Below, piece by piece: positions 28,201 to 53,000 of a stretch of 64,000 nt of DNA. The notes below the pieces were generated by a model. The model saw only the letters and a list, made by a program, of their open reading frames with translations. It was not told the origin of the DNA and made no database searches. Source of the DNA: Spironucleus salmonicida (lineage: Eukaryota). The stretch spans positions 124,001 to 188,000 of the forward strand of contig NC_090601.1 in assembly GCF_000497125.1 (NCBI RefSeq), written 5' to 3'. Every line of letters begins with the position of its first letter. Within the stretch, counting starts at the first letter, position 1. The position numbers and the translations under genes are program-made.

Positions 28201-31200
28201 AAGTGCAATAGTGTGACTTGAGTCTATCTGGTATGTCATTTCTACCACCACCTGGAATTGGCATAGCGCTGATAAAGGTAAAATCTTAAAAGCTGTGGAA
28301 TTCTCCAGGCTTATCAAGCGCGTATAAGCCCCTCTCCTCAATAATCTGACGGGTAAGCTCGTTTGTTGGCTGGTCCGTCCATTCATTGATAAGAGGAATA
28401 TTAACTTCATCAATGAAAACGATGCCTTTCTTTCCGGCAACGGGGCCATAGCTAGTACCCATTCTTTTTTCAACGAAAGCTTCAATATTGCTCTGCAGGA
28501 TACCTCCGGTAGTGGCTGATGAAAAGTTGACATTTCTGATAGCAAATTTCTCTTTGTCCTACTCTCCTAGGAACCTAAATATATCTTTTGTCTTTCCTGA
28601 ACCAGCTTCACCAGTGAAAAGTATATTAAACTAAGATCTATTTAGCTTCTAAAGAAGATAGTTAATTGTTGTATTATCTACGGTCGGAATAAGAATTTCG
28701 CCAAAAGGAATTGGCTATGGAGGAGGATACGTGTATGAAGGAACAATATCAGTCCACTTTTACCATTGACCAGAGTCATTTATGAAATAGTTGTAAATCT
28801 GGTCTTGAGTATTCTCTAGCGTAGGATAGTCTATTTGCGCATTCTTAGCAGCCTGATTATCATATAAAAACTTTTATAGAATCTTTTTATCGTCTAAATC
28901 TAAGACAGCGCCAAATGACCACATGATAGCAAACAAAATTATCTTCTTGAAAGCCATAGGATTAATCTTTCCAATAATCTGCGATGCATTCTCGGCGATA
29001 CATTGCAATTGTGCTTATTGAGCATTGCAAAAACCTTCTGTAGTCATAAACTAACCTGCACTAATAGCTTCCGCTAAAACTTCACCATTATTCTATTTGT
29101 CTTCCATGTTAGCCAGCTTGCTCTCGACACCGCTTCCATCATAGATAAGGGCGGTAATAATATTTAGAAGTTATCTTATCAATTACAGTGGTGGAACATT
29201 GAACAGAGGTTTAACCTCGAGATCGGTAAATTGATATAAAGCATCCAGTAATCCAGATGAATCTAACATCTAGGTCATGATGTTGACTTACTCGCCTTGC
29301 CAGCCCTTAGTCCACGAAATGTAGAATGGTTTCCATCCATATGCTTTAAACCCAGACATATAGATCATACCAGCTCTAGAAACTGTAGCCGGAGAAGCGT
29401 TGGCCAATGAGTCAATTTCCAAAATAAGCTTCAGATTCTTAGACATTGGGATTCTATCAGAATTTGCTAGTGTTAATGTCTTGTTGTCATCCATGACTGT
29501 GTTGAGATTTTCAATCCAAACTGCATCGACAGGTCCGTTTAGAGTCAGCATGATGAAATGTTCGGCCTTGACTGCCTTTCTCCACAGAGCTGAAAAAATA
29601 CCGTCCGTCCAGTCTCCAGTTGAAGCATCTAGCCTACCGAACATTTGAGGGGCTGTGATAGCTTTGGGGTTCATTTTAACAATCTGGAACTTCTGGCCAG
29701 TTATATTTTGCTGACATTTGGCCAATGTGTGAAGGGTGCACGATTTTCCAGCTAAAGTAGGCCCAAGAAGCATGATAGAGTGGCGCACGTTATATGTTTC
29801 GTAAAATTAAATAACTGACTTAACCCAGTCTGGTTACCTTTGTATATTGAGCTGCTGTGTCACAGTAACAATCATATTTTCTAGAGTCTCGTATTTATTT
29901 TCAGGAGGTTTGATACCTGGAAACAGGTCAGTTGTCAAAGATTCGAAGAGAGGGATATCAGGGGCGACCAACTTAGATCTGTTCATGTCCCGTAAAACAC
30001 GAAGCAAGATGAATGACTCAGTTAACGTTTTATCGTGAGCATTATCTCTTCTTTATTCTCCACATGTACGCAGAACGGACAGGATGTTTCTTAAACCAAA
30101 ATCATAATGGCGCTACTAGGATAATTGCTATTCGCACAATTGATAAAGAATGTAAAACTTTTTCGCTAGCATCTTGGATTCTGAGAACCCAGCTGCTGCT
30201 AACTTAACATCCATGATAATTTGGCGATCTGGTACCATCATGGCAACGGAACGGAATAATGCCTTCAGATTTTCTAGCAATTCTTAACGACCAGCATAAC
30301 CTGGGTTCATGGTAATGAAATATGCAGCAGAGGTAAGCAATGACACCATGCAACCGTCTGTGTAAAGGAACATCTTCTTTTTCTCCTTAATAGCAGATAA
30401 TACACAGAAGATCTATTGTGCGGCCACTGACATAACATCAAGTTCAATACGATTGAATTCATCAAAATCTCCAAAACAACCGCACTAAGCAATACCTCTA
30501 TAAATTTTACCGAGACCCTTATAATCCATCTGATCAGAACAATTGAACACAACTACGAACATACCTACTGCCTTTCCCATATCCTTTACAGTTTCGGTTT
30601 TTCCAGTACCAGCTGGTCCGGCTGGGGCTCCGCCTAAGCACATACCTATGGCCTGGGCCAATGTTATATAACATCTATCAGTTAAAGGAGTAACAACTAA
30701 TCTTTCGTTAACACCTAAATATTCGTAGTTGTAAATGAAATCAATGTCAGTAATCTATAAAATACATGTATCTTATTCAGTATTCCAATAAAATCTTGTT
30801 TATTTTAACCAGTCAAATTCAGTAACTGAACGAACCTTAGCTGCTATTAAATCATTAAAAATATCACGTTGATGTACATGAATAGTGATTAATGTTTCTA
30901 CGTTAGTTCTTTGTCTAGGAACCATTTCCTATTATTTAGTAATTTCAACTAACAGATCAAATACATCATTGTTCTTCTTAACAACATTCTCTAAAGCCTT
31001 TTTATCAGATTTAATTGTTCTAAATGCTTATTCACACCACAAAGTCCAAATGATTTATAAACATAGCAAGGTAACTTAAGCAGGATACGCCTCGAAAAAT
31101 TCTTTTAGTAGATCCTTGTAATCAGGTCTACTTAAATCTTAAGCAGCCTAACGAACAATATCTTTAATAGATCGCTGCATAACAGAAATTAAAGTATTCA

Positions 31201-34200
31201 ACCAATCTTCAATTGAACCTGATGCTACAACTGGGACAGATAAAGCAACCTTTTCACCATTTTTGTCATTAAGTGCTACAATATTATTACGCTTTTAAGG
31301 ATTTTTATCGAAATCTAATTTATATACAGCATCAAATATTGATAGCAAATGCTGCTATATTGCACCTGGATCTGATTACTAACCTAAAATTTCTAATAAT
31401 ACTGGATCAGATACGAAATAAAAGCGAGGGAATAAGTTACGCTTTTGTTCTAAATACCCTGACAGCGACTTTTGGCACTCTTCTAATTACTCTATGAGAT
31501 GTGGTAAAAGTGATTTAAGCGTGTCATCCTGGGAAGTCATATAAATAACTCCAGGGTTTAGATTGGCGCCGCCCATTATCTTTATCCAAGTCTTATCGAT
31601 GTTTCCGAACCTTTTCGCCTCAGCTGGCAGCTGACGTGCGATATCTCCAGAACTGAAAACAGCCTCCAAATAAATCCAGTTCTACTAGACCTACAACCAT
31701 AAACTGAGGGTTTCGTCAAGCGTCGATAAACGCTTAACCCACTAAAATATTTCATCTTTGAACGGCTTGTTATATCTGTTTGACTGAATAGAACTTAGGA
31801 GCATTTGAGAATCTTCCAATGCACTAATTAACTCAGACGTTTCTGCAGCATTGAGAATTACCTTGCCTCTTGACTTAAATTCGTCAAATACAAAGTTCAT
31901 GGATTTCCACTGGTCCCTAATTTAATTTACCTTAATCTCGATGTCAGTCTCTTTTGTTGCAGCATTGCAAATATCTTCAATATCTTCTGAATATTTAACC
32001 GGATCAGCAGATAATACATCAGAAAGCTTGAAAGATTCAGGTTCAGATAATATTTTAAGCACTGATTCTGATTTAGTTTTTTCTGAAATCTCTTGCCAAT
32101 GTCTAGGTTTCATTGCTGGATTCGACATGGCTTAAAACGTTGGGAGAATAAGATTAAAATCATCAACTTTTTATTTTAACTCAATAAAAGCATCCCAGTC
32201 TCTCATGTCTTTTGGTAAACGCATGCATCTGTTTTAGAAATCACCCATCTTGATTTATACCTCTTCAAAATTAAGATCAGACCATAATTTATCAGCGTAT
32301 CCATCAATAGTTGTTAAAACATCTGTGTACAAACCATAAAGTTAGTTTAATAACTTAAGATCTTTTTGTATAGTAACTAAATCTGAATATTCCGTAACAG
32401 GAAGACCAAAAAGTTTCTCACCTGTGGAATATGTTAGCCACTTTCTCTCCAATTCCGAAAATTACTATTAAAATTCTCTTAATCTTAATACTGCTACTCT
32501 TGGTGGGATACCTTACACCTTAGGTCCTTTTTCAGTCCATTCAATGCCGAAATTTTCTACAATACCAACAAAGTCTTTAACTGATGTTACAAGATCCTCT
32601 TTAAAACCGCCTTATAACTCTTTTAACTAAGACTAAACCGAAACTGCAGATTATTATATGGTTTTAAGCTTATAATTTAGTTGATCTACCTGTTCTACTT
32701 CTTCTGTAGAAACTTTGATATTGTGTTAGCTCAAAATTTAATAAGTTTATTCAATTGGATAGACTTTATTATCAAAATCTGCCTCTAACTCTCTTAATTT
32801 TACTAATGCACCCATTATTTTTCTTACATCATCCAAATCATTGATATTACCATTAACTTAGTTAGAAACATCATTAATTGTATTAGTCAAAATCGACAAT
32901 TACAACTGTGCAAAGTTATTGAGTTTTGTTGCATATTGTGCTTTCCAAGTTTAAGCCTCATTAGATAACGCTTGTTTAATTTACTCAGTTCTAAGCAAAA
33001 CAAAACCTTATTCTATAAATTGGGGGATTAAATCAATATTATGCGCTAATTTTTCATAATGAACAATTTAAGTGACATAACATTCCAATGCAGGTTTATC
33101 ATCTAAGAATTTTTTGAAAGTTGCTTCCTTATCATCTTTCCATAATTTAATAAAACTGGAAAACATTGTTAATTACTTTTCAATAACATCAAACATTTAT
33201 TTAAAATAACACTACACAGACATAACCAATTTTAGCATTTACCTTGAGTTACCAATATAGTTATAAAATGTATGATCTACTCCAATAGCCTCTAGCTGAT
33301 CTAACTTTGATATTGGTTAGGATAAATCGGCTGCAGCAACCCTTGAGGTAGCAGAACCGAATTGCTTATCAGTATTTTCATTCCATACAATCGATGCTGT
33401 GTTTTTAACATCAACGGTATCTTCTTCTACTGTTGAACTAGAAATTTATGTCTTAGTCATAGTAAGGCGTTACGCAATAGTATCTACCATGTTATCTTTT
33501 GTCAACGAAGTAATAGGCTAAATACTCTACAATACTATACTATAAAAATCTCCAGATGAATTCCACTTGGGAACTCTCTTGGAAATAGATAGCGAAAGCT
33601 CTATCATCGTGTCTAATGTAACTTAAATGTCTTGCGTATTTGGAATAATTGCTATGTTAGGATAAACTAATTCAACATCACAATACAATAAACTATCAAA
33701 TGCATATTCTGATGTAACAGATTACATTGGATGATTATGTGGATTAATATTACACATTCTTGCACCTAATGAACGCATTGTACGCTCACAAGATAAAAAT
33801 ATAGCAGCATGAACTCGTTCGTGCATTTTCTGTATAAAGGTTCTGATAGCGTCGCCAATAATTTAAGAGGTTGTTCTCTTAGAATCATCTGCCTTAATAT
33901 TAACAAAATTAGGATCGAAACATTGAGTTATTGACTGCATGACAACAGTTTTTAAGGACTATGAATTGTTGTTATCATTATTAGAAAGATATCTAGATGC
34001 TATAACAGTAACAATATCACATGTAGCGGCTGCTATAAACATAGATCTTTGGTAGATAGACTCAGCAACTTGTTAAGCGTGAGGTTTGGCTTTTTCAATG
34101 TATTTCTTAAACGATATAGCATTATTATTCTTTTCTAGATAATTTGAAAATAATCTTTAAGGATGTGAGGTGAATTCCGCGTTTTATTGATTATCCTGCT

Positions 34201-36799
34201 CGGGAGTAGATTTTTTAGCGAGTTCAGGTTGATCAAAAACAGTACCGCCCTTTGTAGAATCTTAGGTAGAGCCAAATATAGGTCTTAAGTGTAAAGGTAA
34301 GCAGGTGGTTTGAGCTATAATTTTTAGTGATTCTCCTATACGTAGCTTCATAACATCATTAATAGCTTTCTAGGTAACTTTAATTAAGTTAACTTAACCT
34401 TTTACAGATTCGATATACTGGTCTAAATTCATGGATGTCCAACAAACTGACTATAAAAGTGGTTAAATTTTCTTTTGCAATTTATACATCAAAGGCTACA
34501 TTAAGTCAATAGTATCTTCTTGTAATGAGTTTTAAATTACATCAATTTCTGTAACTAGTTCAACTAATTAGTCTCTGTTAGCGAACAATTTCTCTTCATG
34601 TAAAGTTATAGCCTTCACGTTATCAGGAATGTTGGTTCGGATTTCCTCCAACATTTTTGTTTCTCTACAAAGCTCAGAAATGATTCTATCAAAATTAACA
34701 TATAGCTTTCCGGTTTACTTATTTTCAACCAAAACAGTAGATTGTAATGATAATCTAATAGGTTAAACAGCATTAGCCCATCTTTATAAATGATCATTTT
34801 CGAATTATCTCAAACTTTCAATAGTTGTTGAAAATATTCTGCTTACATTTCTTCCATGCTTGTTATACTATAATAAAGGCATATAACCCATAGGGATATT
34901 ATCTGCAACTTAATTTTAGAGCATAAATAAATTATCGCTAGAATGAGCACCAATTCCTTGTGCCCACTGTTCTTTCTGTTCATCAGTAACTGGGACATAG
35001 ATACGCTTAAAAAATGAGTACGGGCGGGTAATTCTACCTTATACTAATCTACACCATGCTACTCTCCCGGCAATAGGCGTATAGTTTGCTGGAACTGGAA
35101 CCGGAAGATCTCCACGTCTAACCTTATTGTAATAATCAGCAATATGCTTAACATAAAGTGTGAATTTTTATAATAAAATATCATATTTAGACATTACTAA
35201 CTATTACAAATTAGGTCTATTAAGAATAGTATTCAACTATTACATTATAGAAATTAAATCCTATAATTTAATTTATTAGTCACCAAATTTATCATTAATA
35301 TAAGTAGTAAGCGAATTCTCTAAATCAATGATACCTTTTTTATAATCTTCATAATCCGAATCAAATTAGGCTAATCGATGAGATAAAGGGTCATAAGGTT
35401 TAGACTTAAGAACTTAAATAAGATCCTACTACTACTTAATAATAGGTTATAATCCCAATAAAGTAGCGGATTACAAACTGCTAAAATTTTATTTAGTAAT
35501 AATAACATCTGCAATCTTTTTTAATCTTGCACAAAATAATTCAAAGTTTCCAAAAACAGCTTACTCTGAGAAATTAAACTATTTCTCAGCTCCAGAAAGT
35601 AAAAGTTTTTCTTTAATTTTAGCATACTCATCAGAATAAGTGGACAATAATGTAATTGAATCATCAATTCTATGCAAAATTCCTCGATATGATGCTTCAA
35701 AAATTCTTTCAGTGAATTTTTCACCTTCAGCACCGCCGGCTAATACATATTCACGACAAGCTTTAATCATTTAATTGGAAATCTTGATTAACAAAATTGT
35801 CATATTTTCTCGATTACCATAATACTTAGCCATAGAGTGTACAACACGAACTGTTTCCATTAAATCAGGGACTGTTAACGTCATCTTTCCTGGTTCTCCA
35901 GAATAAAGAGGTTAAAGAATATCATCAATTGTTTACAAATACTTTAAGTTATCTTTGGCTTCATTTGTAGCTTCGAGGACTCTTTGCCTAACCTTCATCC
36001 ATCTTGAAACTACATTGCTTCCAGCCTATTATAAAACACGTAAACCCGCTGGTAACCATTCAATAGAAGACATTTAAGTACCAACACCATTGAACAAGGA
36101 CATTCTAGCTCTCCAAAATATTTATTCAGATTCTGGGCCTGAGTCATCTGAGTTTAATCTAATTTTTTCTGAATCAACTAAAAATTCTTCAATTTAATTA
36201 CAAAGAGCAGCCAACGCTCTTTCAATGATTTATAATTACTCTGGTGATTCTTAGAGAAGCTTTGCTATCTAAGTTGTGTCTGTAGGAAGTTTAGCAAAAA
36301 CTTCTGATACTGGAAGTTTTAATGTTAATTTATCTTACAAAATAATAGTAAACTTTTATAAATTATCAATAAATTTTCTTACCTAAGCTAAAAACTGAAG
36401 TTATTGTGTTTTATTCTACAAAGATCCCCAATCTTCTTAATTTTCAAGAAGAGGATAATAAACTCTTTACAATAATAACTAAAGAGAAGTAATATAGTCT
36501 GCTCCAACACAGCCATACATAATATCAACTTCTAAATTTGCCACTGTAACGTTTCTATTAACTGTTCTAAGAAGATAATAAATTTTCCCAGGGAACGGTT
36601 AATTTGGATCTGACGTATACGTTATTTTCTCACCATCCATAAACAAAAGAGCTATAGATTTACCTGCTGATGTGAAAATACTGGACAACGCATTAATATA
36701 GGAACCCCCTTGTAACTATTCAGATACAATTTCGGGTTCGACATCAAAACCTTCGGCGACTCTTTTAATGAGCCATTGCATTTTTGGTTCTTATGCCAT
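22214..36799 (-). CDS. Axonemal outer-arm dynein heavy chain, gamma/DNAH5-8 type, complete, 4861 aa
   Basis: One frame from MAQEPKMQW to ALLCQTQ-TGA; all nine dynein-like fragments of the ORF track fall in this frame. AAA1 [16 protein letters not shown]2 GPTLAGKS with [30 protein letters not shown] (gamma type), AAA3 [11 protein letters not shown]4 GVGGSGKQS, then stalk, AAA5, AAA6 and C-terminal domain. Confidence 0.97.
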
Positions 36800-36830
36800 A
36801 TTTCGAAGGAAGTGAAATTTTGCGGACTTT
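36800..36830 (-). promoter_or_regulatory. Initiator-like pyrimidine element (AATTTCACTTCCTTC) just before the dynein ATG
   Basis: Similar TTTCAY/CACTTC elements lie within ~25 nt of the starts at 9993, 17738, 20196, 37857, 50805, 53063 and 62684. Confidence 0.5.
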
Positions 36831-37856
36831 ACTATAAAAACTATAAATTTTATTATAGTATAATTTATGTGATTAATAAAAAACTTAGTTAATAAATATT
36901 AATTATTATATTAAAAATATATATACGTGATTTGTTGTTTTATTAATTATTATATGATCATCTATAAACAAATTATGAAAGTATACCTATTGATATAGTG
37001 AGTATATGTTATCTATAAAGTAACACAAATTAATGATAGCACTAAAAAATCATAATTTTATCATATTTAAAGTTAAATTTAAACAAGTAAATACAAATTA
37101 TTATAATATAAATAAAAAATTTCAACTTATGTATTATCAATAGTTGCCAAAAATAATATTATCATTAAACTGCTATGACATAAAAATTATTAAATATTGA
37201 AATAGTGTAATAATTTTTTACATATGCTCTTAATAAATTATGATTAACTTATAAATATATTTCAATAATTACAAGAAACTGATGATTTAATGACTGAGTT
37301 GGATTAATATATATTAAATTATGTCATACTAAATTATTTTCATCTATATAAGCCAATTAATGTATTAATGATTCAGTAATATTATAATTTGCTGTATAAA
37401 TTTAATAATTATTTATTAAAAATTATAAACTTCCTAATTAGTTTTCAATTATTAATACCTGGATAATTTTAACTATGTTACTTTGTTTCATTCATAGGTT
37501 TATTTATAACTTAAAATACTAACTAATTTAGATAAATAAAATTTTACTAAAAGCTGATGCACAGATTTTTAATGTAATTACAACTAAAAGATATTTAATT
37601 AATAAATGAATAAACTTAATATACTTACCAAATGAATTACTAATAACGGATTATATAAGAAAAGTAACAAATTATATTAAAATAATATTTTAGTAAATAC
37701 TACATATAAATAACTTATCAAGCTATATCAAATAAATGTAATGACGGCATCTTTTAATTTACAGCTTTAGATACAATAATAATTTCGATTATTGAAAGAC
37801 CTTAATAAGATTTATTTATTATTTAATAATATTTATTATATTTTTCATTCCACAAA

Positions 37857-40800
37857 ATGTCTGATTAACTTTAATTTTATTTAAATAATGTTATGAGATA
37901 GTAAATTTTAGTACCAGAAGAAAGTTATGATACGTATAATATTTAGCTTCCATTTTCAGATATAGTAGGGTTAACATATGACGAAGTTAATAATTATTTA
38001 TCTTCAAATAATATAAAAAAAGATCCTGATGTAACTGATTTAAATGATTCTATAAGATAATTAAAACAATTTAAATAATATGAATAATTTAGTATTTGTT
38101 CAAATTTCGATTTGCCTTAAATGAGTAAACCAAATGATCCATTTAGCAGATTTAATAATGATGAAGTACTTTTATCTGCAAGTTTATCTTAAATGGAAAT
38201 TTTAGCAAATTCGCGGGTTTATTAAAAAAATTAACAGGAAAATGATGATAAGTTTTACGAAGAATGTTTGTAAAGTGCTACTAAAGCATTAAATTTCAGT
38301 AAATAAGAGAATTTATAATTGATAGAACAAGATTATTTTTGCTATAAAGAAAGTATTTCAAATAAATAAGTAAAATTAAATGAATAATTAATTAATATTG
38401 GATTAGATGCTTTAGAGACGTTAGCAATTGATAATCTTATGCCATAGCTAAATGATCCATTTTTAGAAGAACAGCTTAAGCTTATTTTTTCATAAATAAA
38501 ACATATCATCTAACCTATTTATGATTTTTAGGCAGTTAACTAACAGTCGGCATTCGCATTACTATAAAAATTAGCAATAGGTGAAACAGTTAATTTGATC
38601 CTAGAATGGTCAAGTAATACTAAAGAGTTTTAAGATTTAACATTCACTACAATTAATGGAGGAAATGTATAGTTGTCAGCAAGATATTTCGAGCCTGAGA
38701 TGTTTTAACTTAATATAATTCTCTGGTTATAACTGATTGAATAAATAGATATTTCTCAGATTTTATTATCTTCAAATGATAATTTACCACCTGATTATGC
38801 AGAATATTTTGAAGCTGAATTTGTTGAAAATGAATAAAAGTAGTTTTGCTAAAATGTAGAGTTTGATTAGCTTACTGCTTAAAATTCACTGTTTATTTTG
38901 GTACAATAGATTATTGCTTCAATATGCTGGTATTGTATTAAATAAAATTTCATAGACGAGGTTCATAATGATAAACACAGTTAAATTTTTTCTCATAATA
39001 ATTATGAAATTAATTTAAATTGTTAATAATATATAAGCTAAACAAATTTGAATTACTTATTAGAAATCTATTAAAAATAGTTTAACTATGATTATTCAAA
39101 TTTAATTGTTCCGAAACATTTTTCATGCTTGTTACCAGAGTCTGTTTTTTCACTTATTTCTAATTAAGGCACACTTTTTTAGTTTTCGAAGTTAAAGAAA
39201 ACTTATGAACCGTAATTAGAGCTAGTTTCAACATAAATTACTATTTCGAGACCAAAGGCAAAATAATAAATAAAAGATGTTTTAGATTAAGAGCATGATG
39301 TTATATGTTCTAATAACTAAGTCATTAAAATTTAAGAATATATATTTGATGATTTTAATCGTGATAGATCATATTACGACCAAATTATTAGAAATTTATA
39401 GAAAATTGCTTAGGCTGCCAAATCAAGGCTGGTAAAAAGATATAGAAGTAACAAGAATGCTAATTCTATTAATGCAGAATGTGTGAGAAGTAGAAAAATG
39501 TACAATGATATAGAACAAATTAAGAAAAGATTTATGAACGAAACAAAGTCATCTGGCGTTAAAAGAGTATTTTCAAATGTAAAAAGAGAAAAAAAAGATA
39601 AATCATAAATACAGTAGGTCAACTTATAATAGCAAGAAGCAATAAAATAAAAATTGGATGAGACTGAATAGTATATAAAAGAAATTACCGGTTAGCCATC
39701 CTCTACTGATTTAATACCAGTAGTATAAGAGAATGGATTAAATATCAAGATTTAATCAACCCCTACTTTATTTAAAGGTGTTTTAAAGGAATATTAAAAA
39801 ATTGGATTTAGCTGGCTATCTCATATGTATACATAAGGGTTATCATGTTTATTATGTGATTAAATGGGGCTAGGTAAAACGGTTTAAATTATAACATATT
39901 TTCTTCATATAGCTGAAACCTAAGGAACTTTTGGGCCATTTTTAGTTATCGCTCCTAATTCATTATTAAATAATTGGATTTAGGAATTAAAAAGATTTTC
40001 GCCTGATTTTAATGTTTGGCCGTATTGGGGTTCAATTTAATAAAGACAACAGATTAGGTAAGGATGGAGTCATTTGGTATATGTAAATTAAATATTAGAT
40101 AAATATAACGATGTTAATATAGATTTTTTACCCAGCGAAATATTTGGCTAGAAAAAATGCCCATTGCATATTATAGTGACATCATATTCTCTAGCGGTTT
40201 CTGATATTAAGCATTTGAACAAAGTTCCATGGATATCTGTTGTTTTAGATGAAGGCTAAATGATAAAATCTTCTGAAACCAAGAGATGGAGAACATTAAT
40301 GAATATCCGATCATAGTAAAAAATTATTCTTTCAGGTACACCTATTTAGAATACATTATCAGAATTATGGTCATTATTACATTTTGCGTTACCAACTGTA
40401 TTTTAGTCCAAGGATAATTTTGCAGAATGGTTTACTAAGGATATAGAATCTGCAGCTCAAAAAACTGGTCCAATTAAATTAAATTAAGAATAATTATAAA
40501 GATTATAGTAAATTTTATCGCCATTTGTTTTACGCAGAGAAAAAAAGGATGTAGCGTAATAACTAGGAGAAAAGAAAGAAAACAATATATTATGCAATCT
40601 TACTCAAAAATAAAGATAGTTATATCAAGGCATAAAATAAAAATTAAAATATTAGGATTTATTTAATTCAGGATCGGAAAATGAGTTGCTTAATGTAGTT
40701 ATGTAGTTGCGCAAGATTGTTAATCATCCATAGATTTTTGAAAGAAATCTAGTCTAGTCTCCTTATATTTTGATGATGAATTAGTAACACAGAACTGTAG

Positions 40801-42131
40801 AAATATTAGATCAAAATGATTTAGAAAGCGAAACTGAATAATCTATTGCAGACTCTGAGACCACAATTTTAACTTAGGTATCATATAAATAACCAAAAAT
40901 CAAATTTGAGACTTAATAACTTAATGATTTTGCAGAGTTAGTTTTGTCTTAACCGCATTATGACTATTAAAGAGATGTTTATATTGAAAAAGAAATTAGA
41001 AGCGATTAAAATAGATTTATTAGCTTTGAAATACCATAACTTATATTTTAAGAGTTTATTGAATATGAACATGACGTTAGATATTAAACTGAACAAGTAG
41101 CAAATAGTCATTTCAATTTTTCATGTATTTTCAAAAATATTTTCACAATTTTCGGTTTAAATTTTGATGATGTTTAATTGATGGTAACTTTAGTTGATTG
41201 TATGATAAATAATATTAATCCTTATACACGATTAGATTTAAATCTAAAATATTTAGCCAAATTGGTTCCTACATAATTTATAGAATATTGTTTAGATACA
41301 TTTATTTCATTAAAATAATAATAAGATATTTGTACCGAACATTAAGGGTAGTAAATTATAATTAAAAATCATATAGATGCGTTGTTTTAAGTTTATACGC
41401 CTAAATGCTTGGGGTTTAATCCATATTTATACACTAAGGCTCCTAATTACTGGTTCAAAAGATAGAAATATTTGTTTGATTATTGTGATAAGGATAGTTT
41501 TTATATTAAAGCATACATTAATTAATAGTCATTTAGCTAACCATTATTTTGTAGCGGAATTTCTTAATTAATAGAAGAATCAGGCAAGCTTAATGCGTTA
41601 GATTAGTTATTGAAAGATTTATATTCTAAGAACTAGGTTTGCTTAATATATTGCTAAATGACTAAGATGATGGATATTTTAGAAGATTATCTAACTTATA
41701 GAAGATATATATATGTTAGACTAGATGGTAGTTATTCAGTAGCTGAGCGTAGACAGGTTGTTGATAGATTTATGACAGACAATACAGTTTTTATTTTTTT
41801 GTTAAGTACTCGAGCAGGATCACTGGGTTTAAATTTAACTAGAGCTAATAATGTAATTTTTTATGAATAAGATTGGAACCCGACTCAAGATTTATAAGCT
41901 CAAGATAGAGTTCATCGTTTAGGTTAAACTAAAGAAGTTTAAATTTATAAATTAATAGCAAAAGGATCTATCGATGAGAAAATTTATGAAAGGGGTGAAT
42001 AAAAAATTACAGTGCAGAACCTGGTAATGCAAGGGTAGTAACGGGATGAATAAGGAAATTTAATAAATCCTGATATTCTTAAGAAAAAATCAACCAAAGA
42101 TATTTATATGGATATTTTAATGGATGAGTGA
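37857..42131 (+). CDS. INO80: INO80 chromatin-remodelling ATPase (split SNF2 helicase), ~1424 aa
   Basis: [38 protein letters not shown] (INO80-type), [25 protein letters not shown], a long insertion, then [33 protein letters not shown] and DRVHRLGQTK. A DBINO-like QKLDETEQY precedes the ATPase. The start was chosen by leader context; the frame is open further upstream. Confidence 0.88.
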
Positions 42132-42132
42132 T

Positions 42133-42780
42133 TCAAATAATCTCATGCTATATTTTTAAAGACTCTCTTAGAAGATCATTATCATCTAACAGTCCATTGC
42201 ATTCATTGGTTAGTAGCTAATTTTTTAATGTTAACTCATTATTTAAAAGCACAAGTTCACCTTATGTATTTTTGAGAAGCTGTTATTCTAAATCTGATAT
42301 TACTATTTATTACTCTTTTATTAGTTAGTCTTTATATTAAAGCATATTTTCTAATCTATCAGATTTTTTCTAATACATATCTAGTTTTTACAATTTAAGC
42401 TAGAGCTTTTAAATCTTTGTCTGTAATAATGCCATTTCGTAAAGTAATATATCTTCTTCCTCTGCGGTTTTTTGCTTTTTAGGAATTTTAGGCGGTAGTT
42501 AACTTCCACGCAATGGAGGGGAAATTATACCAAATATTGACTGCTTTGGTTTTTTAGGAGAAATTTTTGATATACGATCATTTTCTTTTGAAAATGAAGT
42601 TTATCTAAGCTACTAAGTATATTTAATCGGTGTTAACTTATTAATGTTAGGTGAAGATAATTATTATGGGGATGGAGTTGCAGAAGCAGTTTTAGATACT
42701 TAGTAGATTGTTAATGTATTATTTTAGTTAGGGTCTTCCTCATTATCAATCTTTTTTAATGGCCGACAACATGCGAACAT
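42133..42780 (-). CDS. Hypothetical coiled-coil protein with N-terminal MFACC, 215 aa
   Basis: Start and stop are in frame under code 6. P/S-rich middle and heptad-like C-terminus. Confidence 0.6.
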
Positions 42781-42876
42781 TAAAATATTTATATTACTAT
42801 ATATTTATATAATAAGGATAAATTTATTTTAAATAAAATTAATTAATATTTAATATTATAATTTTAATCACTGCAA

Positions 42877-43857
42877 ATGTGGTGTAATCGGTTTAGACCT
42901 AAATCTTTTGATGAGTTAGTAAATAATGATTCAACTCCAATATTTTCTGCATTGTCAACATCAGATAATCCTCCTCATTTATTACTTACAGGTCCTTCTG
43001 GGTCAGGTCGTCATACAAGAGCACTTTTATATTTACAGTAAATTTTTAATTTAAATTCGTTAAGTTTTGCATCATCTACATTAACTTATAAACACAATGA
43101 TTAAGACTTTGAAGTCCCAATTGTATCTTCATCTGTGCATGTAGAATTGAATCCCTCACTTTCACCTCATGATCAATCAATTGTTTCTTCTGTTATAAAA
43201 GAGGCTGCTTCTACAGCACCAGTTGTTGGAAAGTTTAAAGTAATATTCATCTAAGAAGCTGACAAACTGTCTTTTTTAGCGTAGTAAGCACTACGTAGAT
43301 TAATGGAGGAGCATTCAAAAACTTGTAAAATAATTATGTTTTGTAATTCCTAAACTGGGCTTATTCCACCTATTATTTCCAGGTGTTTTTAAATGCGCTT
43401 CAGATCTTTTAATAAAGATGAACTTAACTCTGTTTTGGTATCACTTCCAGGAAAAATAGAAGACGAGGATAAGTTAATAGAATATTCATAAGGTGACTTG
43501 AGACGATTATTATTATTGGCATAGGCTTAATCAGTTTAAAAGCAGATTACCTTGCCTAAATGGGAATAAAAAGCGGATGAAATTTTTTAAAATTATTTTA
43601 TTCAAGGTAAGCAATTAGATAATGATTTTAGAGTAGGCTTGGTTGATATTTTGAAGCTAGCCGTGCCACCAGAAGTAGTTTTAATGAAATTTTGGAAAAA
43701 AATTGATGATTTTAGTGAAAATGCAAAGTTGTGTAGTTTCAATAGTACCGTGGCTTGTGAATTTGATTGTAGATTAAGAGGAGCATAAATAGGGTTAGTG
43801 CACATAGAAGCATATTTATTGACTATGATTACTGCTGTATAATAAGCAGCAAAGTGA
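42877..43857 (+). CDS. RFC3: Replication factor C small subunit (human RFC3 / yeast Rfc5 type), 326 aa
   Basis: MWCNRFRPKSFDEL, PPHLLLTGPSGSGRHT, SSVHVELNPS, EADKLSFLAQQALRRLME, IISRC, GDLRR and VHIEAY. Confidence 0.9.
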
Positions 43858-43968
43858 GAGGTACTTCTTGTCTTATAGTTTATTAATAGTTTTTGGTTAT
43901 TGATTTATAAAAATGACCGTTAGAAATAAGTAATATTATATATAATTAATATACTATGTTTGTCTAAA

Positions 43969-44502
43969 ATGGAATATGACCACTTTTATCAACCTATGGA
44001 TCCAAATCATATGTATACCTATAATAACATTAATCATGATAAGTTTACAGCAACATTCAGCCCAAATTTTTATTCGACGTATATGGTTCATTCGTCTTCT
44101 TAATGTTTTGTTTCATTAGTTGGAACTTAAGTAAGAGGTTATATGATTGGCAAGGATGAAGGCTCACTATCTAAAGATGAATATCATGTCCATGTTTCAG
44201 CGGTTACTATTGCTCCTGCATCTAGAAAATAAAAATTAGCAGCTAATTTGATGCACTCCTTAGAATAGATTGGGAATTTGTATAAGTGCTCATTTTGTGA
44301 TCTTTTTGTTAAATAATTGAATATGGGAGCTAATTAAATGTATAAAAATTTAGGATATACTCTATTTAGAACAATAACCAGATTTTATGGGAACACAGAA
44401 GATGGATATGATATGAGGAAACCTTTACAGTCGGATACTACCAGCTAATGCATTAATAACTCAGGTTCCACTATTAAAAAGTGGATAGATTACCAATGGT
44501 GA
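43969..44502 (+). CDS. NAA20: N-terminal acetyltransferase B catalytic subunit, 177 aa
   Basis: NNINHDKFT, GYMIGKDEG, HVHVSAVTIAP, CDLFVK, MYKNLGY and EDGYDMRK, matching the NAA20/Nat3 motif order. Confidence 0.88.
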
Positions 44503-44548
44503 GGTTACTAATTATTATACATATATTTAATTAAACTATGTTTTAATT

Positions 44549-44863
44549 ATGCCGCCAAAATGTGATTTTTCTTTAAGATATAAACCACTTCTACCTATAG
44601 TAGAATTAAGTAATAAATTTATATTATAAAACTATGAATATAAAGCTCCTGAAAGACTAATGGAGTATGCGATACCTTTTGAGGAATAAAAATTAACTAC
44701 TTTATCTTTGTCGAAATTGACACCAAAATTAACACTTACACAAATTAGCGATTCATATAGTCCTATTAAAAACAGTATTAACGACGATGTTTAATTTATT
44801 TCAGGAGATAATATAGATAATATTTTTGAAGCTGATCTTTAAGCAGGACTAAATTTAATTTGA
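44549..44863 (+). CDS. Small hypothetical protein, 104 aa
   Basis: Open code-6 frame MPPKCDFSLRYKPLLP...GLNLI-TGA. Confidence 0.5.
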
Positions 44864-45332
44864 CTTGAGTGCATTGAAATCTGTAGTAACATATTTAAAA
44901 TTGTGAATTTATTTGTTGATTAAGTATCATATTTACTCTTATTTATAGCATCACCATAATCCTCATATTTCTAAACATTTATTTAAAATTAAGCTTGTCT
45001 TAATTATTAGGTAAGCTAAGGAAATTGCCAATTTATTTTATTAAATGATCAGAACATATATTAATAATTTGTGAATTATATAGCTCTGTTTATTGTTTTA
45101 ATTTCGTCAAAACTATTATTAGTGTAATAAATTTTAGAATTAATAACCAAATTAACATAACTTATAATTATTATATATATGTAAAGATAAATATATTTTA
45201 TGATCATTTGCAACAACTATAATAGTATGAATATACTAAAGATAATAATAACTAAGTTGTGGTTTATAAAATCATAACTTATATCTATATATGTATATAA
45301 TAGATGATATATTTTTAAATCTATTCCTTCAA

Positions 45333-46007
45333 ATGTGTGAAGCTATTTATATCCCACAAAAACTTTATTATCGTCGCGGTTCTATGCATACTGTTGCTGG
45401 AGAAGTCAATTTCTAAAAGGCAGCAATCCTTTCTAATAACAGAGATCTTGATATTTCCTAGTAAGTAGCTGCTGAGTTCCATTAAGGACGTTGTTATCCT
45501 ATGCTTGTTAATGACTCTGTTTCTGATGAGGCATTATAGATTATTAACAATGCTATCAAGAACTGTGATACTTTAGTTGTAGTTGGTGATTATAAATTGT
45601 AAAACTTTGTAGCATAAGCAGTTGCTGATTTACCCGAACAAAAGTAGATTGTTGTTGTTCCAGTTGATGCCAAACCTATTCATCTTATGACTGGATATTA
45701 TAAGGCAGCAGATGGTGCTATTAGACACAGCCTTAATATTATTCCTGAATACGTTATACTTGACTCTGGTCTTACTGACAGAATTTCCAAGGATGATGTT
45801 GCTTTAGTCCAAAAGGTTGTTAGCTAGGAATCAGAAACTGTTATGATTGCTTTCACCAAAGAAGCTTAGAGAATATCTAAGGAGCTTATTGCCGGTTATG
45901 GGACTATTGATATGCCAGTCTGGAAGGAGCGTGCCACTAATGTCGTTGGTATCACCATGCTTGGTTAACCATGTGGTAAACATGTCATCGCAGTACTCGG
46001 GTTGTGA
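45333..46007 (+). CDS. Truncated, divergent iron-containing alcohol dehydrogenase (AdhE ADH-domain)-like protein, 224 aa
   Basis: IPQKLYYRRGS (compare AdhE LPKSIYFRRGS), KAAILS, CDTLVVVG, IVVVPV and IIPEYVILDSGLT follow the Fe-ADH N-domain layout. The GGGS and PTT-GTGSE motifs and the His-containing C-domain are absent. Confidence 0.65.
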
Positions 46008-46134
46008 TCGTTTTAATAATATTATAAGTATTTATTAATTTTTTTTTCAATTAATTAATGAATACTGTTGGCTGTTATTGGTATCAAATAAGAAGAAATA
46101 CAATCCCCATACATAATATTAAATAGCAAAAATC

Positions 46135-49100
46135 TCAGTCAAATTCTACAATATTCTTAATTTCGAAATTAGAATTCTCCCATACATAATCGCCATAGCC
46201 TAAAGCATTGATATCAGATAGATAAGAAAGTTCACCATTAGCCCAATTTGTTACCTTATTGATATCTGGCCCTCCAGTTTCAAAACCAGCAGCTATCATT
46301 TAGTCTGGGCTAACTTTAGTCTGTTAATGAATTTTCTTATCTTAATAACAACATTTTGACCATTTAGCATTAACAAGAGTAGCATAAACATCACAAAATT
46401 CATCATGTAAATCAATGCTTTTTAATTAATTTAGAGTATGATATGCTTCGGTTTATAATTTATAATTTACTTATTCTAGAATTTTAAGGTCAGATTAAGC
46501 TTTGACAAGCTCTTCATATATTTCATCAGTTTGCTCTTTCTTAAGTAACAATTAATCTTCCAGCCTTCTTTCTTCCAGTTCTTATTTTCCTAAATGACCT
46601 AACGACAAAAATCTATGAATTTCTAAAGGTTAAACCGCAGATTCATCAGATGCTTCCCCATATGAAAGAATATTAAGCAAAGGATGTGCTTAAATGATGA
46701 TCTCTATTAATGGGGATAATTCTGTGACCTTATCAACAAGCTAGTATGAATCTTACCAAAAGTCAGCATTTTTAAGGACTTCAGATATAGCTATTTTATC
46801 ACCTTAGCACTGCCGAGATCTATGAATAACAATATCTAAAATTTTACTTCTAGTTTATCTAAAATCTATCTCTCGGTTCATTTTGCTTATGTACTCTTTC
46901 AGTATTTATTTACCTTGCAACTCTCTTGCTAACGGCGTACATTAGTCAAAAATATGCTTAAATGTCCCAACCATAGTTTACTGTATAAAATATGCGTTAA
47001 CTATTTCTGTAAAACAAACTGGAGCAGGTCTAGCCTAAGGTTGTAAAGATGGCAGTCCGCAGAATCTATCCAAACCATCTCTAAGCAGCTAACAAATAAC
47101 TGAAACTGCATATGTGCATGTTTTTGTAAATGACTATATTCGTTCTAACTCTGCACTTTGAGCCTTTGGCAAATAATATGGGCTCATATAATAAATTCCT
47201 CTCATGAAATTTTCTAACTGCATGAAGTTATTCGATGGTGGATAAAATACAAAACTAGTTTCAGCACATTTACAAGATTATATAGTATTAGTTTTCTATT
47301 AATTAAGCATTTTATCCTCTTAATTACAGGAGCTAGTCACAGGTCCAAATTAAGAGATTATTTCAACATGCCTTTGCTCTAAGGCAAATAGTGGCGATAA
47401 AAGAGAATCAATATTATTTTAGTCTAAACTAAAAAATGAATTATTAAATTTTGTCCAAAATTTAATTATTTCATCTACAGTTGATTCTTCACCACCTGCC
47501 TGTGGAGGTGGAGGTGCTTCAGTATCTAATAAAGCTGGTGTATTCGGCGGCATTTATGGAGATCCATATGGCGCAGATGCTCGTAGCATTCTTCCGAATA
47601 TATCATATATTGGCTCTTTACCTGTTTATTCTAATAGAGTATATTTTTTAAATAATGGAGCAGACATAAAATTTTCAGTTATTTTTTATAGTGATATATT
47701 TTTCTCTTCTGATATACTATTTTGACATTTGTACTTTAAAAATATATCTTGTGCCGATTAATAATTATAAAATTTTTGTACATTGATTTTAGCATCATCG
47801 GGTGATAATAACCCTGTTCTAAGCAAAAAACTTATCTAATAACCTCGTTATCTTGATAAAATTAATAGATCAGTTTTGGGAAAATCGCTAACAGACTTAA
47901 AGATTTACTAGCATTGTAACTCTTGAAAATTATATGATTAACTATTTGATAAATGATAATCGGTGAATGCCTTAGATTCTTATTTTTATGGATCATCCTT
48001 TAAATAGCAATTATTAGAATTAACCTCAAAATCTACATGTAATACGTCAAATTATTCAAAATTTAACATATCACATAATATATCCAAATTTTCAGCAGCA
48101 AACTTATAAATATTTTCATGTTATTAGTAAAAATCTTAAATATATGTAGGCTTTAATTATAATATATCAGCAATATTCTTGTTTTTGTACAAATTAAATT
48201 CAGATTTTTCTTATAATATAATTTACTTATCTTGATTAGTGGGATAATAAAGGTCTATCAATCCTTCTGGATAATTAAGGATCGATCTAAATTTTTCTAT
48301 ATATTTATTCTGGTCTAATATTGATTAAATTTTACGTCCCATTATGTTAAAGCATGAGAAGTTTTACGTCTTATATTCCCTGATTGCTTAAGCTAATTTT
48401 CTATACACTTAATTAATATCTAATAATGTCATAATATTTGATTATATGATTTACTCTTCTTACAGCTAATCAAATTTTTATTAAAGAGAAGTTGATAAAA
48501 TTTTAGTTATATCGGCTTATGAAAGCTGCGATTTAACTGAGAATAGATTACTTAATTAATTAAAATAAGCAGGTACATAATAATAACCAATCTGACTATC
48601 AAATATAAGAAACGGTGAAATATTATGCCCAAATTCATATAAGTCTAAAAATAAAGCTAACTCTTTAACATCAAATCCAAATTTTTACAAATTGTCTGCA
48701 CTTTGTTATTTGAAATCTGTTAAGTTTTTAATATTAAGCAAGTCAATAAAAATATGAGGAATGATGATATCTATATTGTCATCAAATTCAACAACTTCTC
48801 CATTTTATACCTCTAACATTGATGGTAAGTATGTTTTAGGAATATCTTAAATATCATTATTATCTTCACTTTCAGATTCTTCTTGTAACACTTTATAACC
48901 ATATTCTTATAATTTTTACAACATTTCAGTTTTATTTGATGTAATTTTAGCATCAGGTAATATATTTGAGACTGGTAACACCCCCATAAATTTTTTATTA
49001 ACTTAAACTATCCTTAATGATTAGTTATATTTAATCTCTTTATATAAGTTATTAAGACTAGAATAATTAGGAATGTCCTAGTTTTAATCAAATTTAAAAG

Positions 49101-50805
49101 ATAATTGTGGTTATTATTTAAAATTATTAAATTAATAAACATACACTGCTTTTAAATCGAAGGAAGCTTCCTCATAATCTAAAAATGGATGAGTTATCCC
49201 ATCAAAAGGTTTATCTTAATGCAAATAATGGCCTAGTATATGATCTGTAAAATTCTATACTGCTTCTGGTTTATTTTAATTATTGAGTTTAACTGCTAAT
49301 GCATTAATTGAATTTTTAGCAGTAATATTAACTTTATTTGTTTCTGAGTCTTTTGGATTAATAAAAACATATTAGATGTTATCAACAATTTAATTATAGC
49401 TTTCGATATTGTTATCAACTTAATATTACAATAATGATTATGATCCTGCCCATAGTGCGTAAGAACTGGAGATAGAGTGATGCTGAGATTTTTATATATA
49501 TGACTTTTTAGTGGCCAATGCTAATCTGGTATCAAGTGTTTATTAAATACCATTATGAAGATGAATAAGATCTTCAATGAATTATAGAGTATCAAATTTA
49601 TCATTAAGAAATGCAGTAAATAATGATCTTAAAAAATGTTTATACCCTAATTTTTAAGAAAAACTTCCAGTTAATAACATTAATAAATACTAATTATTAA
49701 CGATATAATCAAACGTGGTGTTATCTTATAACTAATTTAACTCTAATCTCATTTAACTAACTATATAGGTTATTTAATGATAAAATATATCTGGTGATGA
49801 GCCTTGAATTTATAAATTACCAGGTTGCTTATCTTTCAAAATGTTAAAAAATTCATGAAAACCTTTAAGATCTACTTATTACTAAATATTTTATGTAGTT
49901 TTAAAAGTTTCGTTTTATATAGATATACCTGCATTAATGAAATTTCCTAGAGTAAGAATACCACAATTTGCATCTTATACTATAGAATCATCACAAATAA
50001 CAGGATTTTCTTAAATTTGTTGAATTAATGATTAAACTTCATTATCATAATCTAAAAAAGATTTTGATTGCACTAGTTTATCATTTGATAGATTTACCTT
50101 TAAATAAACCGTATAAACACTTTGATCATCATCATCAAACTAATACTCTTCAAATTCATCTCCTTTAAGTACAGAAGTGAGCATATTTTCATTATTTTCA
50201 TCCTTTTCCACACCCATAACATAAATATTGGAACCTTTCATACTTGTTGGTATTTCTTTAAAAATTTCATAATGTCCATCAGACAATCTATATAATGCTG
50301 CATTAGATGTATCTAGCTTGATTTTAAATTTATCTAGTTCATCTTAGCTATAAATTTATAACAAATCAATACCAGCTTCTTATAAATATTTAATATCATA
50401 TTATCTAGCGATTGCTTTGGTTAATAATTGTTCTTCAGCTAAAATACGTAAATATGAAGGAATGTCAATCTATTTATAATTTTCATAATCTGAAGTTATA
50501 CCGACTAAAGAACAAGATCCCCTTGGCGGTGTAGACAATTGCTAAAGGGCTTCTTAAACAGTCAGATTCTATTACTTAGGACCTAGATTGTACAGTTTTG
50601 TTTATAAATGTGATGGAATCTATTATCCACTTATTAGGAACTCTGCAGCCTGACCTAATTCCAAAGGCATTTCCTAAAGATCTGACGATAATCTTGATCT
50701 TTACAGTGTGTTTCTTGCTATAATATTTCCTAACTAAAAACTTGGTGCTGTTGACGATGAGGTACGAAGCAATGCAGGAAATTCAAAAGTAAAGGTTAAT
50801 GGCAT
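46135..50805 (-). CDS. Large hypothetical protein, 1556 aa
   Basis: Start MPLTFTFEFPALL and end LRIFVEFD-TGA are in the same frame, and sampled segments are open. Contains a Pro-rich linker (APPPPQAGG). No family recognised. Confidence 0.7.
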
Positions 50806-50930
50806 TTAATTAAAAAAGAAGTGATAATACTAATATATAATATTATTAATATTATTAAATTATAAATGCCTTAATAATTAATAGAAATATATTTAATTAA
50901 ATCTATTAGTTTAAAATTTTAAAATCAAAA

Positions 50931-53000
50931 ATGAGTTAGACAGACTATAATTAATTTGATCAATCATCGAAGATATTAGATGTAAAATAAACTATTTAAC
51001 TAAATAAATAGATGATAAATAATCTTACCTCGTAGTTAAGACAGTTTGAATAACAAGTTACGTAACTTGAGAGTAGGAATTAATAATTGGTATCTTAAGA
51101 CTAACTATAATTATAAGATTTATAAAAACTATCTTAAAAGTGTTTAGATTATGAGCAAGTTTTGGGTGGTCTATATACGGAACAAAAAGATCATATCAGT
51201 TAATTACAAGCTTAATAAGATAAAATAAATATTCTGAACAATAAATTATAACAATAAGAATAGTCACAATAAGGTTCCACTTAGTAATAAGAATAAATAA
51301 AAATATAGAATAAGTAGCTATAAGATAAAGTATTAGAATAGTAAACTAAACTATTTTAAATTAACTAAGATTTATAGTTATAGAAAGAAGATAATTTTTG
51401 TATTAAATAAAGTATTGAAACATTAAAATAATAACATAGTTCACAACTATAGTAAGATAATAGTCTAAAAAATGATTTAGAAGATAAAATATTAACCCAA
51501 GTTAAAACAATTCGCCAATTTCAGGAAGTACAATAGTAACTCGATAACACTGTATTACTTAAAGAAAATACAATTGCTTAGCTCAAATAGTAGTTAATCA
51601 AAGCGAACGAAAAATAATCTTAAAGTATCTCTGAATTTGAGAAACATATATCTGATTAATAAATACTTAAAGTGTAACAGTAACAGCTTGTATCTAATCT
51701 TTCATCACACCAACAATAAAATAATTCTTTAAAAACTTAAGTGGAGTATTTAAATTAATAAAACCAACAGATTCAAACACAGTCTATGAATAATATAAAT
51801 TAGCTTAATTAGCAAATCAAGGAACTTAAATATGAGGTTTAAAACTAAAATAATAAAGAAAATGAAAAGTTTGAAGTTCTTACATAATAAAATGATGAAT
51901 TAATAGAATAAACCTAAAAATTGTAGTAGAATAACTTTGATTTAAAATAGGCTTTGACATAACTTTAAACTTAAAATTAGATTGAGAATGTAAAAATTAT
52001 TTAAAGAAATTAAGAGTTAGAATAATAAAATTAGAAACTTAAAGATGTCTAAAAAGACGTTATCTAGAGTAAAGAAAATGAATCAAAATTGAAAAAGAAT
52101 TTTTAAAATTTGTAGGCCGAGCATGATAATTTACTGAACGAAATCTACGGTATAAAAGATAACATTTAAGAAGAATACAGGATATTATAGGAAAATTAGA
52201 CTATGTTAGGGACATCAAAAATTATTAATTAGGATCTACTAGAAGTTAAAATTTCCGCCTTAGAAAATGCTAGTAACGCTCTTAAAATAGCTGTTAGTAG
52301 TTAACAAGGTGAGATTAATATGCTTAAAAATACATCTCAGATTAAGTCGATAAGTGCCTCTGAATAGTCGCCAAGAAGTTCTCATAACTCTGCTATTGGA
52401 GAGTTATAAAATTAAATTTCTGACATGCATAATTAGATATTAAATCTTAAAGCTTTAAATTCTTCATAATTTTCAGATTTACCAGGAAGTAAAAATAGTC
52501 CTCCATCGATTAAACTTTAGTCGTTTTAACCTGTTCATAATGATCGTTTGGTATTATCTTAAAGTAGCGAACATTAATTCTTAGATTAATCTGTGGTTGC
52601 ATTTCCAATATAAAAATAACTTATTTTTAATATTTTTTCGTCTTTCAGTCCAGATAATTAAAAATAACTTGCTAGATCAATAGGGCTAGAATAAGTAAAC
52701 GTATTTATATAAGCTGTTTTTAAGGAGTAAAGTTTAGATTAAATTTATGAAAACTGGGATTTATAGACGGAAATTTTAACTAAATAAAAACTTGTTAAGT
52801 TTTTTGAACAGTAGAAAATCGAAATTACAAGAAGAGATATGACAAAACTCTATGAATCTGATTTAGCTGATGATACTTATGTTACTTGGATAATGGGTTT
52901 ATTTTTCTTTGTAATAAGTTAAGGTGATATTGTTATCGATAGTGGTTGTGACATTTACTAGATATCAGGAGTAAAAGTAATGGTAATTGAAAATGAATGA
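50931..53000 (+). CDS. Long coiled-coil protein with a globular C-terminus, 689 aa
   Basis: Q/E/K/L heptad-rich frame from MSQTDYNQF to VMVIENE-TGA. Confidence 0.7.

Follow-up and report, generated by a model that had tools for sequence, protein, structure and literature searches.

The Spironucleus salmonicida gene at positions 45333–46007 of the window, the 64,000-nucleotide stretch of contig NC_090601.1 analysed here, is by its sequence the ortholog of the Giardia trophozoite antigen GTA-2 (GL50803_15427). The family is known, conserved and expressed. That its members are truncated, dead iron-type alcohol dehydrogenases (Fe-ADHs) with a filament interface of AdhE type is well supported and seems not to have been reported, GTA-2 having so far been an immunoreactive, abundant protein of unknown process. 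In our preferred reading, to which we give a probability of about 0.4, GTA-2 is a fornicate pseudoenzyme that arose when the ADH domain of AdhE was duplicated and truncated, and it would dock on the free ADH end of the AdhE dimer or spirosome.

Membership of the GTA-2 family

A first homolog search found three proteins among 260 candidates, one of them the GTA-2-like protein of Hexamita inflata (52% identity). Searched with a profile, 1.84 billion representatives yielded 20 matches at E ≤0.001, including the cluster that holds Giardia muris GTA-2 (TNJ28485.1) and a Dysnectes brevis protein. Used as a query, G. muris GTA-2 matches only the 45333–46007 gene in the genome (E 3.7e-16). This best-match relation comes with full-length similarity to named GTA-2 proteins, and the length agrees as well, the 224 aa of the Spironucleus protein standing beside a family norm of about 225 aa with no extra domain. 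Ten distinct full-length members, from Giardia and Hexamita to Dysnectes, measure 222–256 aa and share 18–68% pairwise identity. In trees they form one clade with Dysnectes branching first, as expected under vertical descent in fornicates. The Giardia and Hexamita proteins thus have the same family, length and predicted fold as the present one.

Because the family already bears the name GTA-2 or GTA-2-like, the undescribed system announced by the original prediction did not materialise. GTA-2 was described among six new Giardia proteins that react with serum (Palm et al. 2003, via PMC9440637, PMC8579046), and recognition by host antibodies is reported for Giardia only. The G. intestinalis protein is given as 225 or 236 aa in two papers, and its published epitopes match the G. 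muris sequence in register. GTA-2 also changes upon Giardia virus infection (PMC12548405). In a 2019 table, one Spironucleus GTA-2-like gene shares an orthogroup with GL50803_15427, has an empty InterPro field and lacks an oxygen response (log2 change -0.03); since the gene is single-copy, this row presumably describes the present gene.

Existing data foreshadow the Fe-ADH link. A 2018 proteome-wide modelling table pairs GL50803_15427 with 1,3-propanediol dehydrogenase 4FR2 (TM 0.77, class LowerConf; PMC6312909), and one family member bears a precomputed PF00465 tag. In the published literature searched (mainly open-access), no paper describes GTA-2 as a pseudoenzyme, as derived from AdhE or as regulating spirosomes, and a review of eukaryotic Fe-ADHs has zero occurrences of 'GTA'. 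The search also covered PMC5125639, PMC6397501 and PMC5739509.

Predicted fold

As a single sequence, the 224-aa protein matches no Pfam family at E 1 and has no meaningful NCBIfam or PDB sequence match. In the family alignment, 10 of 15 rows match PF00465 at E ≤0.1 (best 7.7e-7), and an AlphaFold2 model built on these 15 rows reaches a pLDDT of 91.6 and a pTM of 0.88. Foldseek ranks the ADH domain of E. coli AdhE first for this model (E 5e-11), so the Fe-ADH likeness first read from the letters reappears in both profile and structure. VIA places residues 1–220 on AdhE 450–723 (Z 20.1, rmsd 2.5, 217 residues aligned) and the model on FucO 2–263 with Z 21.9, above or level with AdhE. The models therefore make the Fe-ADH fold certain and do not discriminate between subfamilies. 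Stand-alone iron-type ADHs (FucO, PduQ, methanol dehydrogenase and glycerol dehydrogenase) have the same fold at Z 16–22, and the AdhE ADH domain (PF00465 + PF25137; PDB 6SCG, 6AHC) shares it over residues 450–723. The model of G. muris GTA-2 (pLDDT 89.2), which again finds AdhE at ranks 1–4, is not independent of the first because the alignments share rows.

The model holds the whole Rossmann-like domain followed by four helices of the helical domain, the predicted layout of the Fe-ADH/DHQS-like superfamily with its second domain partial. The resemblance to the N-domain of the AdhE alcohol dehydrogenase stands, but the protein extends past that domain into these four helices. Identity to AdhE is 13–17%, and the 224-aa protein does not reach the curated Pfam cut-off for PF00465 plus PF25137 that marks Fe-ADH enzymes.

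Filament interface

In AdhE, F670 inserts into a pocket formed by I460, F462 and I712 of the next ADH domain; when F670 is mutated, spirosomes break up and the forward reaction drops (PMC6778083). The GTA-2-like protein retains all of these elements. Its N-terminal strand (residues 7–16, positions 45351–45380, plus strand) carries L11 and Y13 at the pocket positions I460 and F462, and R14 at R463, which takes part in an inter-subdomain salt bridge. F174 (45852–45854, plus strand) corresponds to F670, which acts as the knob where two ADH domains meet in the filament. This register comes from hhalign profile alignment rather than superposition; in its favour, both families have Thr at +1, a small residue at +8 and Leu at +11. 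The helix PVWKER...GI (45915–45953, plus strand) supplies E199 at E701, the salt-bridge partner of R463, and I207 at pocket position I712, together with the invariant, family-specific W197. Pocket positions L11, Y13 and I207 are hydrophobic.

In a comparison whose 12 AdhE and 28 stand-alone rows include ten loci picked by the family profile (L046-L055), position 670 is aromatic in 12/12 AdhE, 2/28 stand-alone Fe-ADHs and 9/10 distinct full-length GTA-2 proteins, the tenth, from Dysnectes, having its Phe one column later. Position 463 is R, K, E or Q in 12/12 AdhE, Gly in 25/28 stand-alone enzymes and R or K in 10/10 GTA-2 proteins, all ten of which also have Glu at E701. GTA-2 shares with the AdhE ADH domain the N-terminal strand, the knob, the pocket and the R463-E701 bridge. 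Stand-alone iron-type ADHs dimerise via the same interface (bioRxiv 2019.12.19.882415) and, unlike GTA-2, mostly have Gly at 463 and an aliphatic residue at 670. The one AdhE of S. salmonicida carries the same knob and a matching pocket.

Proposed role and partner

Spirosome growth alternates an ALDH-mediated dimer with the ADH-ADH contact (PMC6778083, bioRxiv 2019.12.19.882415), and AdhE loops 561-589 and 758-772 form the ALDH-ADH contact (bioRxiv 2019.12.19.882415). The GTA-2-like protein has no N-terminal ALDH domain; loop 561-589 is deleted and loop 758-772 falls past its C-terminal end. A protein with the ADH-ADH face and without these parts has the anatomy of a terminator, one expected to bind a free end and not extend it. 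In the proposed mechanism, GTA-2 uses its inherited face to attach to an AdhE dimer or spirosome at the free ADH end and, having neither ALDH domain nor ALDH-contact loops, could not carry the filament on, which would terminate or shorten the spirosome. GTA-2 in excess would drive this shortening down to AdhE2:GTA-2(2) units. Filament state alters the direction of the AdhE reaction (PMC6778083) and in E. coli the reverse rate varies with spirosome length (PMC12173503), so a predicted cap would tune ethanol formation, termination setting the share of acetyl-CoA that goes to ethanol.

The presence of a single AdhE with the same knob in Spironucleus, and of an AdhE in Giardia, favours AdhE as the partner, as do the codon style common to the two genes and their joint rise in vivo in Giardia. 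Dead paralogs are known to regulate an active parent by hetero-oligomerisation, as Pdx1.2 does with Pdx1 and cFLIP with caspase-8. The logic proposed for GTA-2 is the same, with catalytic residues lost and the oligomer interface kept, and the literature searched holds no protein subunit that regulates AdhE spirosomes in this manner.

Conservation of knob and pocket does not name the partner, because a homodimer needs the same knob and pocket and is served by them equally well. GTA-2 may quite possibly be an AdhE-derived pseudoenzyme that only homodimerises through the inherited interface and acts as an abundant scaffold or binding protein, independent of AdhE and tied to high cell density and encystation. 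This role and capping stand at about even odds. Invariant residues foreign to AdhE (E24, P115, S145, W197 and P213) suggest that the family has a surface or core of its own, and a dead, abundant AdhE-binding paralog would be expected to interfere with AdhE unless selected. Against a homodimer alone, AdhE-type interface residues persist at 13–17% identity, where a co-evolving homodimer could have drifted.

Expression data bear on both possibilities. With the genome's own AdhE as reference, the codon score of the GTA-2-like gene is 0.042, higher than in any of the 13 window genes tested (-0.08 to -0.31), with a z of 5.6 that was reached by 0 of 5000 synonymous resamplings; the gene and AdhE have the same codon style. 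The highly-expressed style proposed at the outset is right for AAG and GTT/GTC, but ATC (0.25) and GCT (0.48) are only mildly favoured. Contigs of four presumed-RNA runs lie on the ORF, and GTA-2 transcripts are abundant in Giardia, in line with an expressed gene. They reach 2170–2714 TPM there against 495–586 for AdhE, a 4.4–4.6-fold excess, and rank 56–105 (PMC4670223). In a second dataset GTA-2 and AdhE stand at 6017 and 1692 FPKM in vivo and at 1198 and 866 FPKM in vitro, a 1.4–3.6-fold excess, with in vivo rises of 5.0-fold for GTA-2 and 2.0-fold for AdhE (PMC5450421). During encystation GTA-2 goes from 3211 FPKM to a peak of 10010 at 7 h and stands at 249 in cysts, and GFP fusions appear in the trophozoite cytoplasm and nuclei and at the cyst wall (PMC5450421).

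The high transcript rank, the encystation profile and the GFP pattern all suit an abundant homodimer. The excess over AdhE is too much for two caps per long filament, and to this extent the spirosome capping offered in the original prediction is weakened, even as the kept knob and pocket and the lost ALDH-contact loops favour it. The same excess is equally compatible with saturation to capped dimers and with a homodimer that does something else. Nuclei and cyst wall are places not expected of an AdhE subunit and count against a cap. No signal peptide is predicted for the Spironucleus GTA-2-like gene (2019 table), so the cyst-wall GFP may be peripheral cytoplasm, which tells against the homodimer. 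In the Giardia secretome supplements searched AdhE turned up and GTA-2 did not, which is counted as evidence for neither role. Docking on AdhE remains our preferred role. Its most specific form, a dedicated AdhE end-cap or partner invented in fornicates that would set spirosome length, perhaps by keeping AdhE in a capped AdhE2:GTA-2(2) unit, and with it the ethanol-versus-acetate balance in crowding and encystation, is rather doubtful.

Loss of catalytic features

E. coli AdhE contacts NAD through D487, G546, S547, T597 and L638 and holds iron with D653, H657, H723 and H737 (PMC7470043); the equivalents in GTA-2 were mapped by profile alignment. Two replacements seen in the original prediction hold up in this alignment. 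GDYK (residues 85–88, positions 45585–45596, plus strand) takes the place of NAD-binding GGGS (544-547), and PVDAKP (residues 110–115, positions 45660–45677, plus strand) that of PTTSGTGSE, with the TGSE loop deleted and new conservation at D112 and P115. Gly occupies the G546 position in 40/40 sampled intact Fe-ADHs and never in the family (0/15 rows). At S547 the family has K, H, N, S, T or R, the D487 position is variable, and K619 is lost.

The iron site fares no better. A shortened helix (45789–45830, plus strand) marks the D653/H657 site, where the register is uncertain (157/161 or 162/166) and no Asp or His is kept in either. The last helix (45975–45998, plus strand) takes the place of the H723 helix and has no conserved His; H737 lies beyond the end. 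The protein was first thought to stop before the iron-binding His residues, which is clearly so only for H737, since the D653/H657 positions are inside and substituted and the last helix is the H723 helix. No His or Cys column is common to the ten distinct full-length members. The GGGS and TxxGTGSE motifs and the four ligands Asp653, His657, His723 and His737 are thus all missing. Sampled stand-alone iron-type ADHs differ, with the G546 position kept in 28/28, metal ligands in nearly all and a length of 343-400 aa. Compared with AdhE, the GTA-2-like protein is without the ALDH domain, both contact loops, GGGS, the TGSE loop, the four ligands and the last ~140 residues.

From the loss of NAD-contact residues, TGSE loop and iron ligands we infer catalytic death, which is well supported on this ground. 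A maintained pseudoenzyme of Fe-ADH fold, as originally suggested, finds support in the conserved family, the confident model and the lost cofactor and iron residues.

Alternatively, the Rossmann-like domain might bind a nucleotide or metabolite as a sensor, or D112, K114, D144 and S145 might form a new active site. G85, D144 (equivalent to D635) and the L638-equivalent position are kept, R14-E199 holds the cleft between the subdomains, and D112 occurs in 9/10 members. Such a function is unlikely, however, with the G546 and S547 contacts replaced in every member, D487 variable, K619 and the TGSE loop gone and no family-wide His or Cys column; an Asp at the T598 position would moreover be expected to repel phosphates.

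Ancestry

GTA-2 probably descends from AdhE and not from a stand-alone Fe-ADH. An AdhE parent is favoured by the profile scores and the diagnostic residues; the trees do not resolve the matter. Against PDB sequences, AdhE makes up the top 6/10 matches of the family profile (best E 2.4e-4). On 201 bacterial genomes of one phylum, 8/10 matches fall in AdhE-sized ORFs (828-915 aa), compared with only 4/95 PF00465 matches in ORFs that long in 31 of those genomes. With L046-L055 left out because the family profile had picked them, and with AdhE and stand-alone labels given by ORF layout, six AdhE score 17.4-25.5 bits and 26 stand-alone enzymes at most 17.2 (median 1.2), in rows that are not phylogenetically independent. 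Profile-profile comparison gives E 1.5e-10 with AdhE versus 2e-7 with stand-alone enzymes. The AdhE-specific signal sits mainly in residues 2-27; it is weak without them, and residues 147-224 alone give none. The N-terminal strand is closer to E. coli AdhE than to the organism's own AdhE.

In a FastTree of 49 rows the family grouped with L052 and L053, both long and remote. Later trees leave these two out and use 47 rows, 212 columns and LG+G4, with three constrained trees obtained by fast search alone. The family branch is ~2.2 long. GTA-2 is sister to its own AdhE in the best tree, by a margin of <0.1 log-likelihood unit. AU p values are 0.59 for a position with AdhE, 0.51 for sister to own AdhE, 0.56 for the free tree, 0.26 for P0012+P0013, 0.41 for P0011 and 0.038 for P0010, so that the test keeps 5/6 placements, AdhE and two stand-alone alike.

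These two stand-alone groupings would allow descent from a stand-alone Fe-ADH (PduQ-like or of the lineage of the genome's own P0012/P0013), with GTA-2 regulating such dimeric enzymes instead of AdhE. P0013 scores 17.2 bits, an Atlas structure search puts PduQ-like and stand-alone clusters level with AdhE, and the best full-length match of the 3-sequence profile is a divergent clostridial Fe-ADH of 381 aa, which the family profile itself had picked up and which outscores AdhE (35 vs 22.6 bits). We consider such a parent quite improbable, given the AdhE-type residues at 463 and 670, the enrichment of AdhE among family-profile matches in PDB and the 201 genomes, and the profile-profile values.

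An AdhE parent also bears on the probable bacterial ancestry claimed for the protein. Diplomonad adhE is a lateral acquisition predating the Giardia-Spironucleus split (PMC1484493), and published entries for retortamonad genes take Giardia AdhE as their reference (PMC7985675), so the bacterial ancestry of GTA-2 is probably indirect, via resident adhE. No short bacterial relative of GTA-2 appeared in the profile search of 1.84 billion representatives or in the 201 bacterial genomes. The ESM Atlas has bacterial Fe-ADH clusters of 237-246 aa without the C-terminal Pfam domain, which may be fragments or true short forms, and a 275-aa hypothetical cluster was also matched.

The S. salmonicida genome encodes one AdhE of 882 aa and four stand-alone Fe-ADHs of different subfamilies with 343-403 aa (loci L002-L006 on C1, C8, C2, C5 and C2). 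One of the stand-alone enzymes is strongly oxygen-induced (log2 change 3.1; 2019 table). A long AAT/AAC-type triplet run, poly-Asn in one frame, lies downstream of adhE.

Gene model and genomic context

The window reads under NCBI table 6, which gives the 224-aa ORF at 45333–46007 (plus strand), a shortened Fe-ADH fold equivalent to AdhE 450-723; under table 11 there are zero ORFs of 80 aa within 40000-52000. The gene is single-copy in the genome. An in-frame ATG also occurs at 45291; the orthologs nevertheless align from 45333. Contigs of four sequencing runs (one study, presumed RNA) match the ORF with zero mismatches and zero gaps. In two of the four runs the contig stops at 46019 in an A-run followed by adapter letters, so the transcript would end 12 bases past the stop codon, with a 3' UTR at 46008–46019. 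These contigs, and orthologs of like length, agree with the intact ORF described at the outset. Positions 45015-45215 are without contig cover and depth over the ORF is far above that of the neighbours; neither is counted as evidence, because the runs had been selected by this gene. A plasmid tblastn search gave one match (E 0.9), judged chance.

The protein, called 'half-size' at the outset, has 53% of the length of the ADH domain of its own AdhE (224/420) and 56-65% of that of the four stand-alone enzymes (343-403 aa). No missing C-terminal half to be recovered by assembly correction was found, since all 5 genomic matches of the C-terminal Fe-ADH profile PF25137 fall within the 5 full-length Fe-ADH genes. 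A pseudogene, assembly break or split gene, for which short length alone speaks, is refuted by these matches, by relatives of 222-256 aa and 18-53% identity that terminate at the same place, by gap-free contigs of which two end in poly(A), and by the opposite-strand gene that ends 128 bases past the stop codon.

The gene lies between a 104-aa ORF (44549-44863, plus strand), which has no Pfam family and is covered by short contigs from two runs, and the 3' end of a convergent 1556-aa ORF (46135-50805, minus strand) with no Pfam match above cut-off. An RFC3-like clamp-loader subunit (42877-43857, plus strand) and a GNAT acetyltransferase (43969-44502, plus strand) are ordinary housekeeping neighbours, so the genomic context is uninformative on function. 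Farther off are an ORF of 4915 codons (22214-36961, minus strand) that by its size we take to be a dynein heavy chain, a presumed SNF2-type helicase (37224-42131, plus strand) judged from its motifs, and a cyclophilin gene near 20028 (minus strand).

Implications

Recognising GTA-2 as a dead Fe-ADH fold that retains the dimer face gives the first concrete handle on its function. Should the protein only homodimerise, a family found throughout fornicates would still be soundly re-annotated, a result of modest interest. The Discussion of an AdhE cryo-EM paper left open whether spirosome formation is actively regulated (PMC6778083). With a natural protein reduced to the polymerisation interface, spirosome regulation would become testable using two purified proteins. 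If the end-cap reading is true, GTA-2 would have no precedent as a protein regulator of spirosome assembly in the literature searched, and a long-known Giardia antigen would gain a metabolic function.
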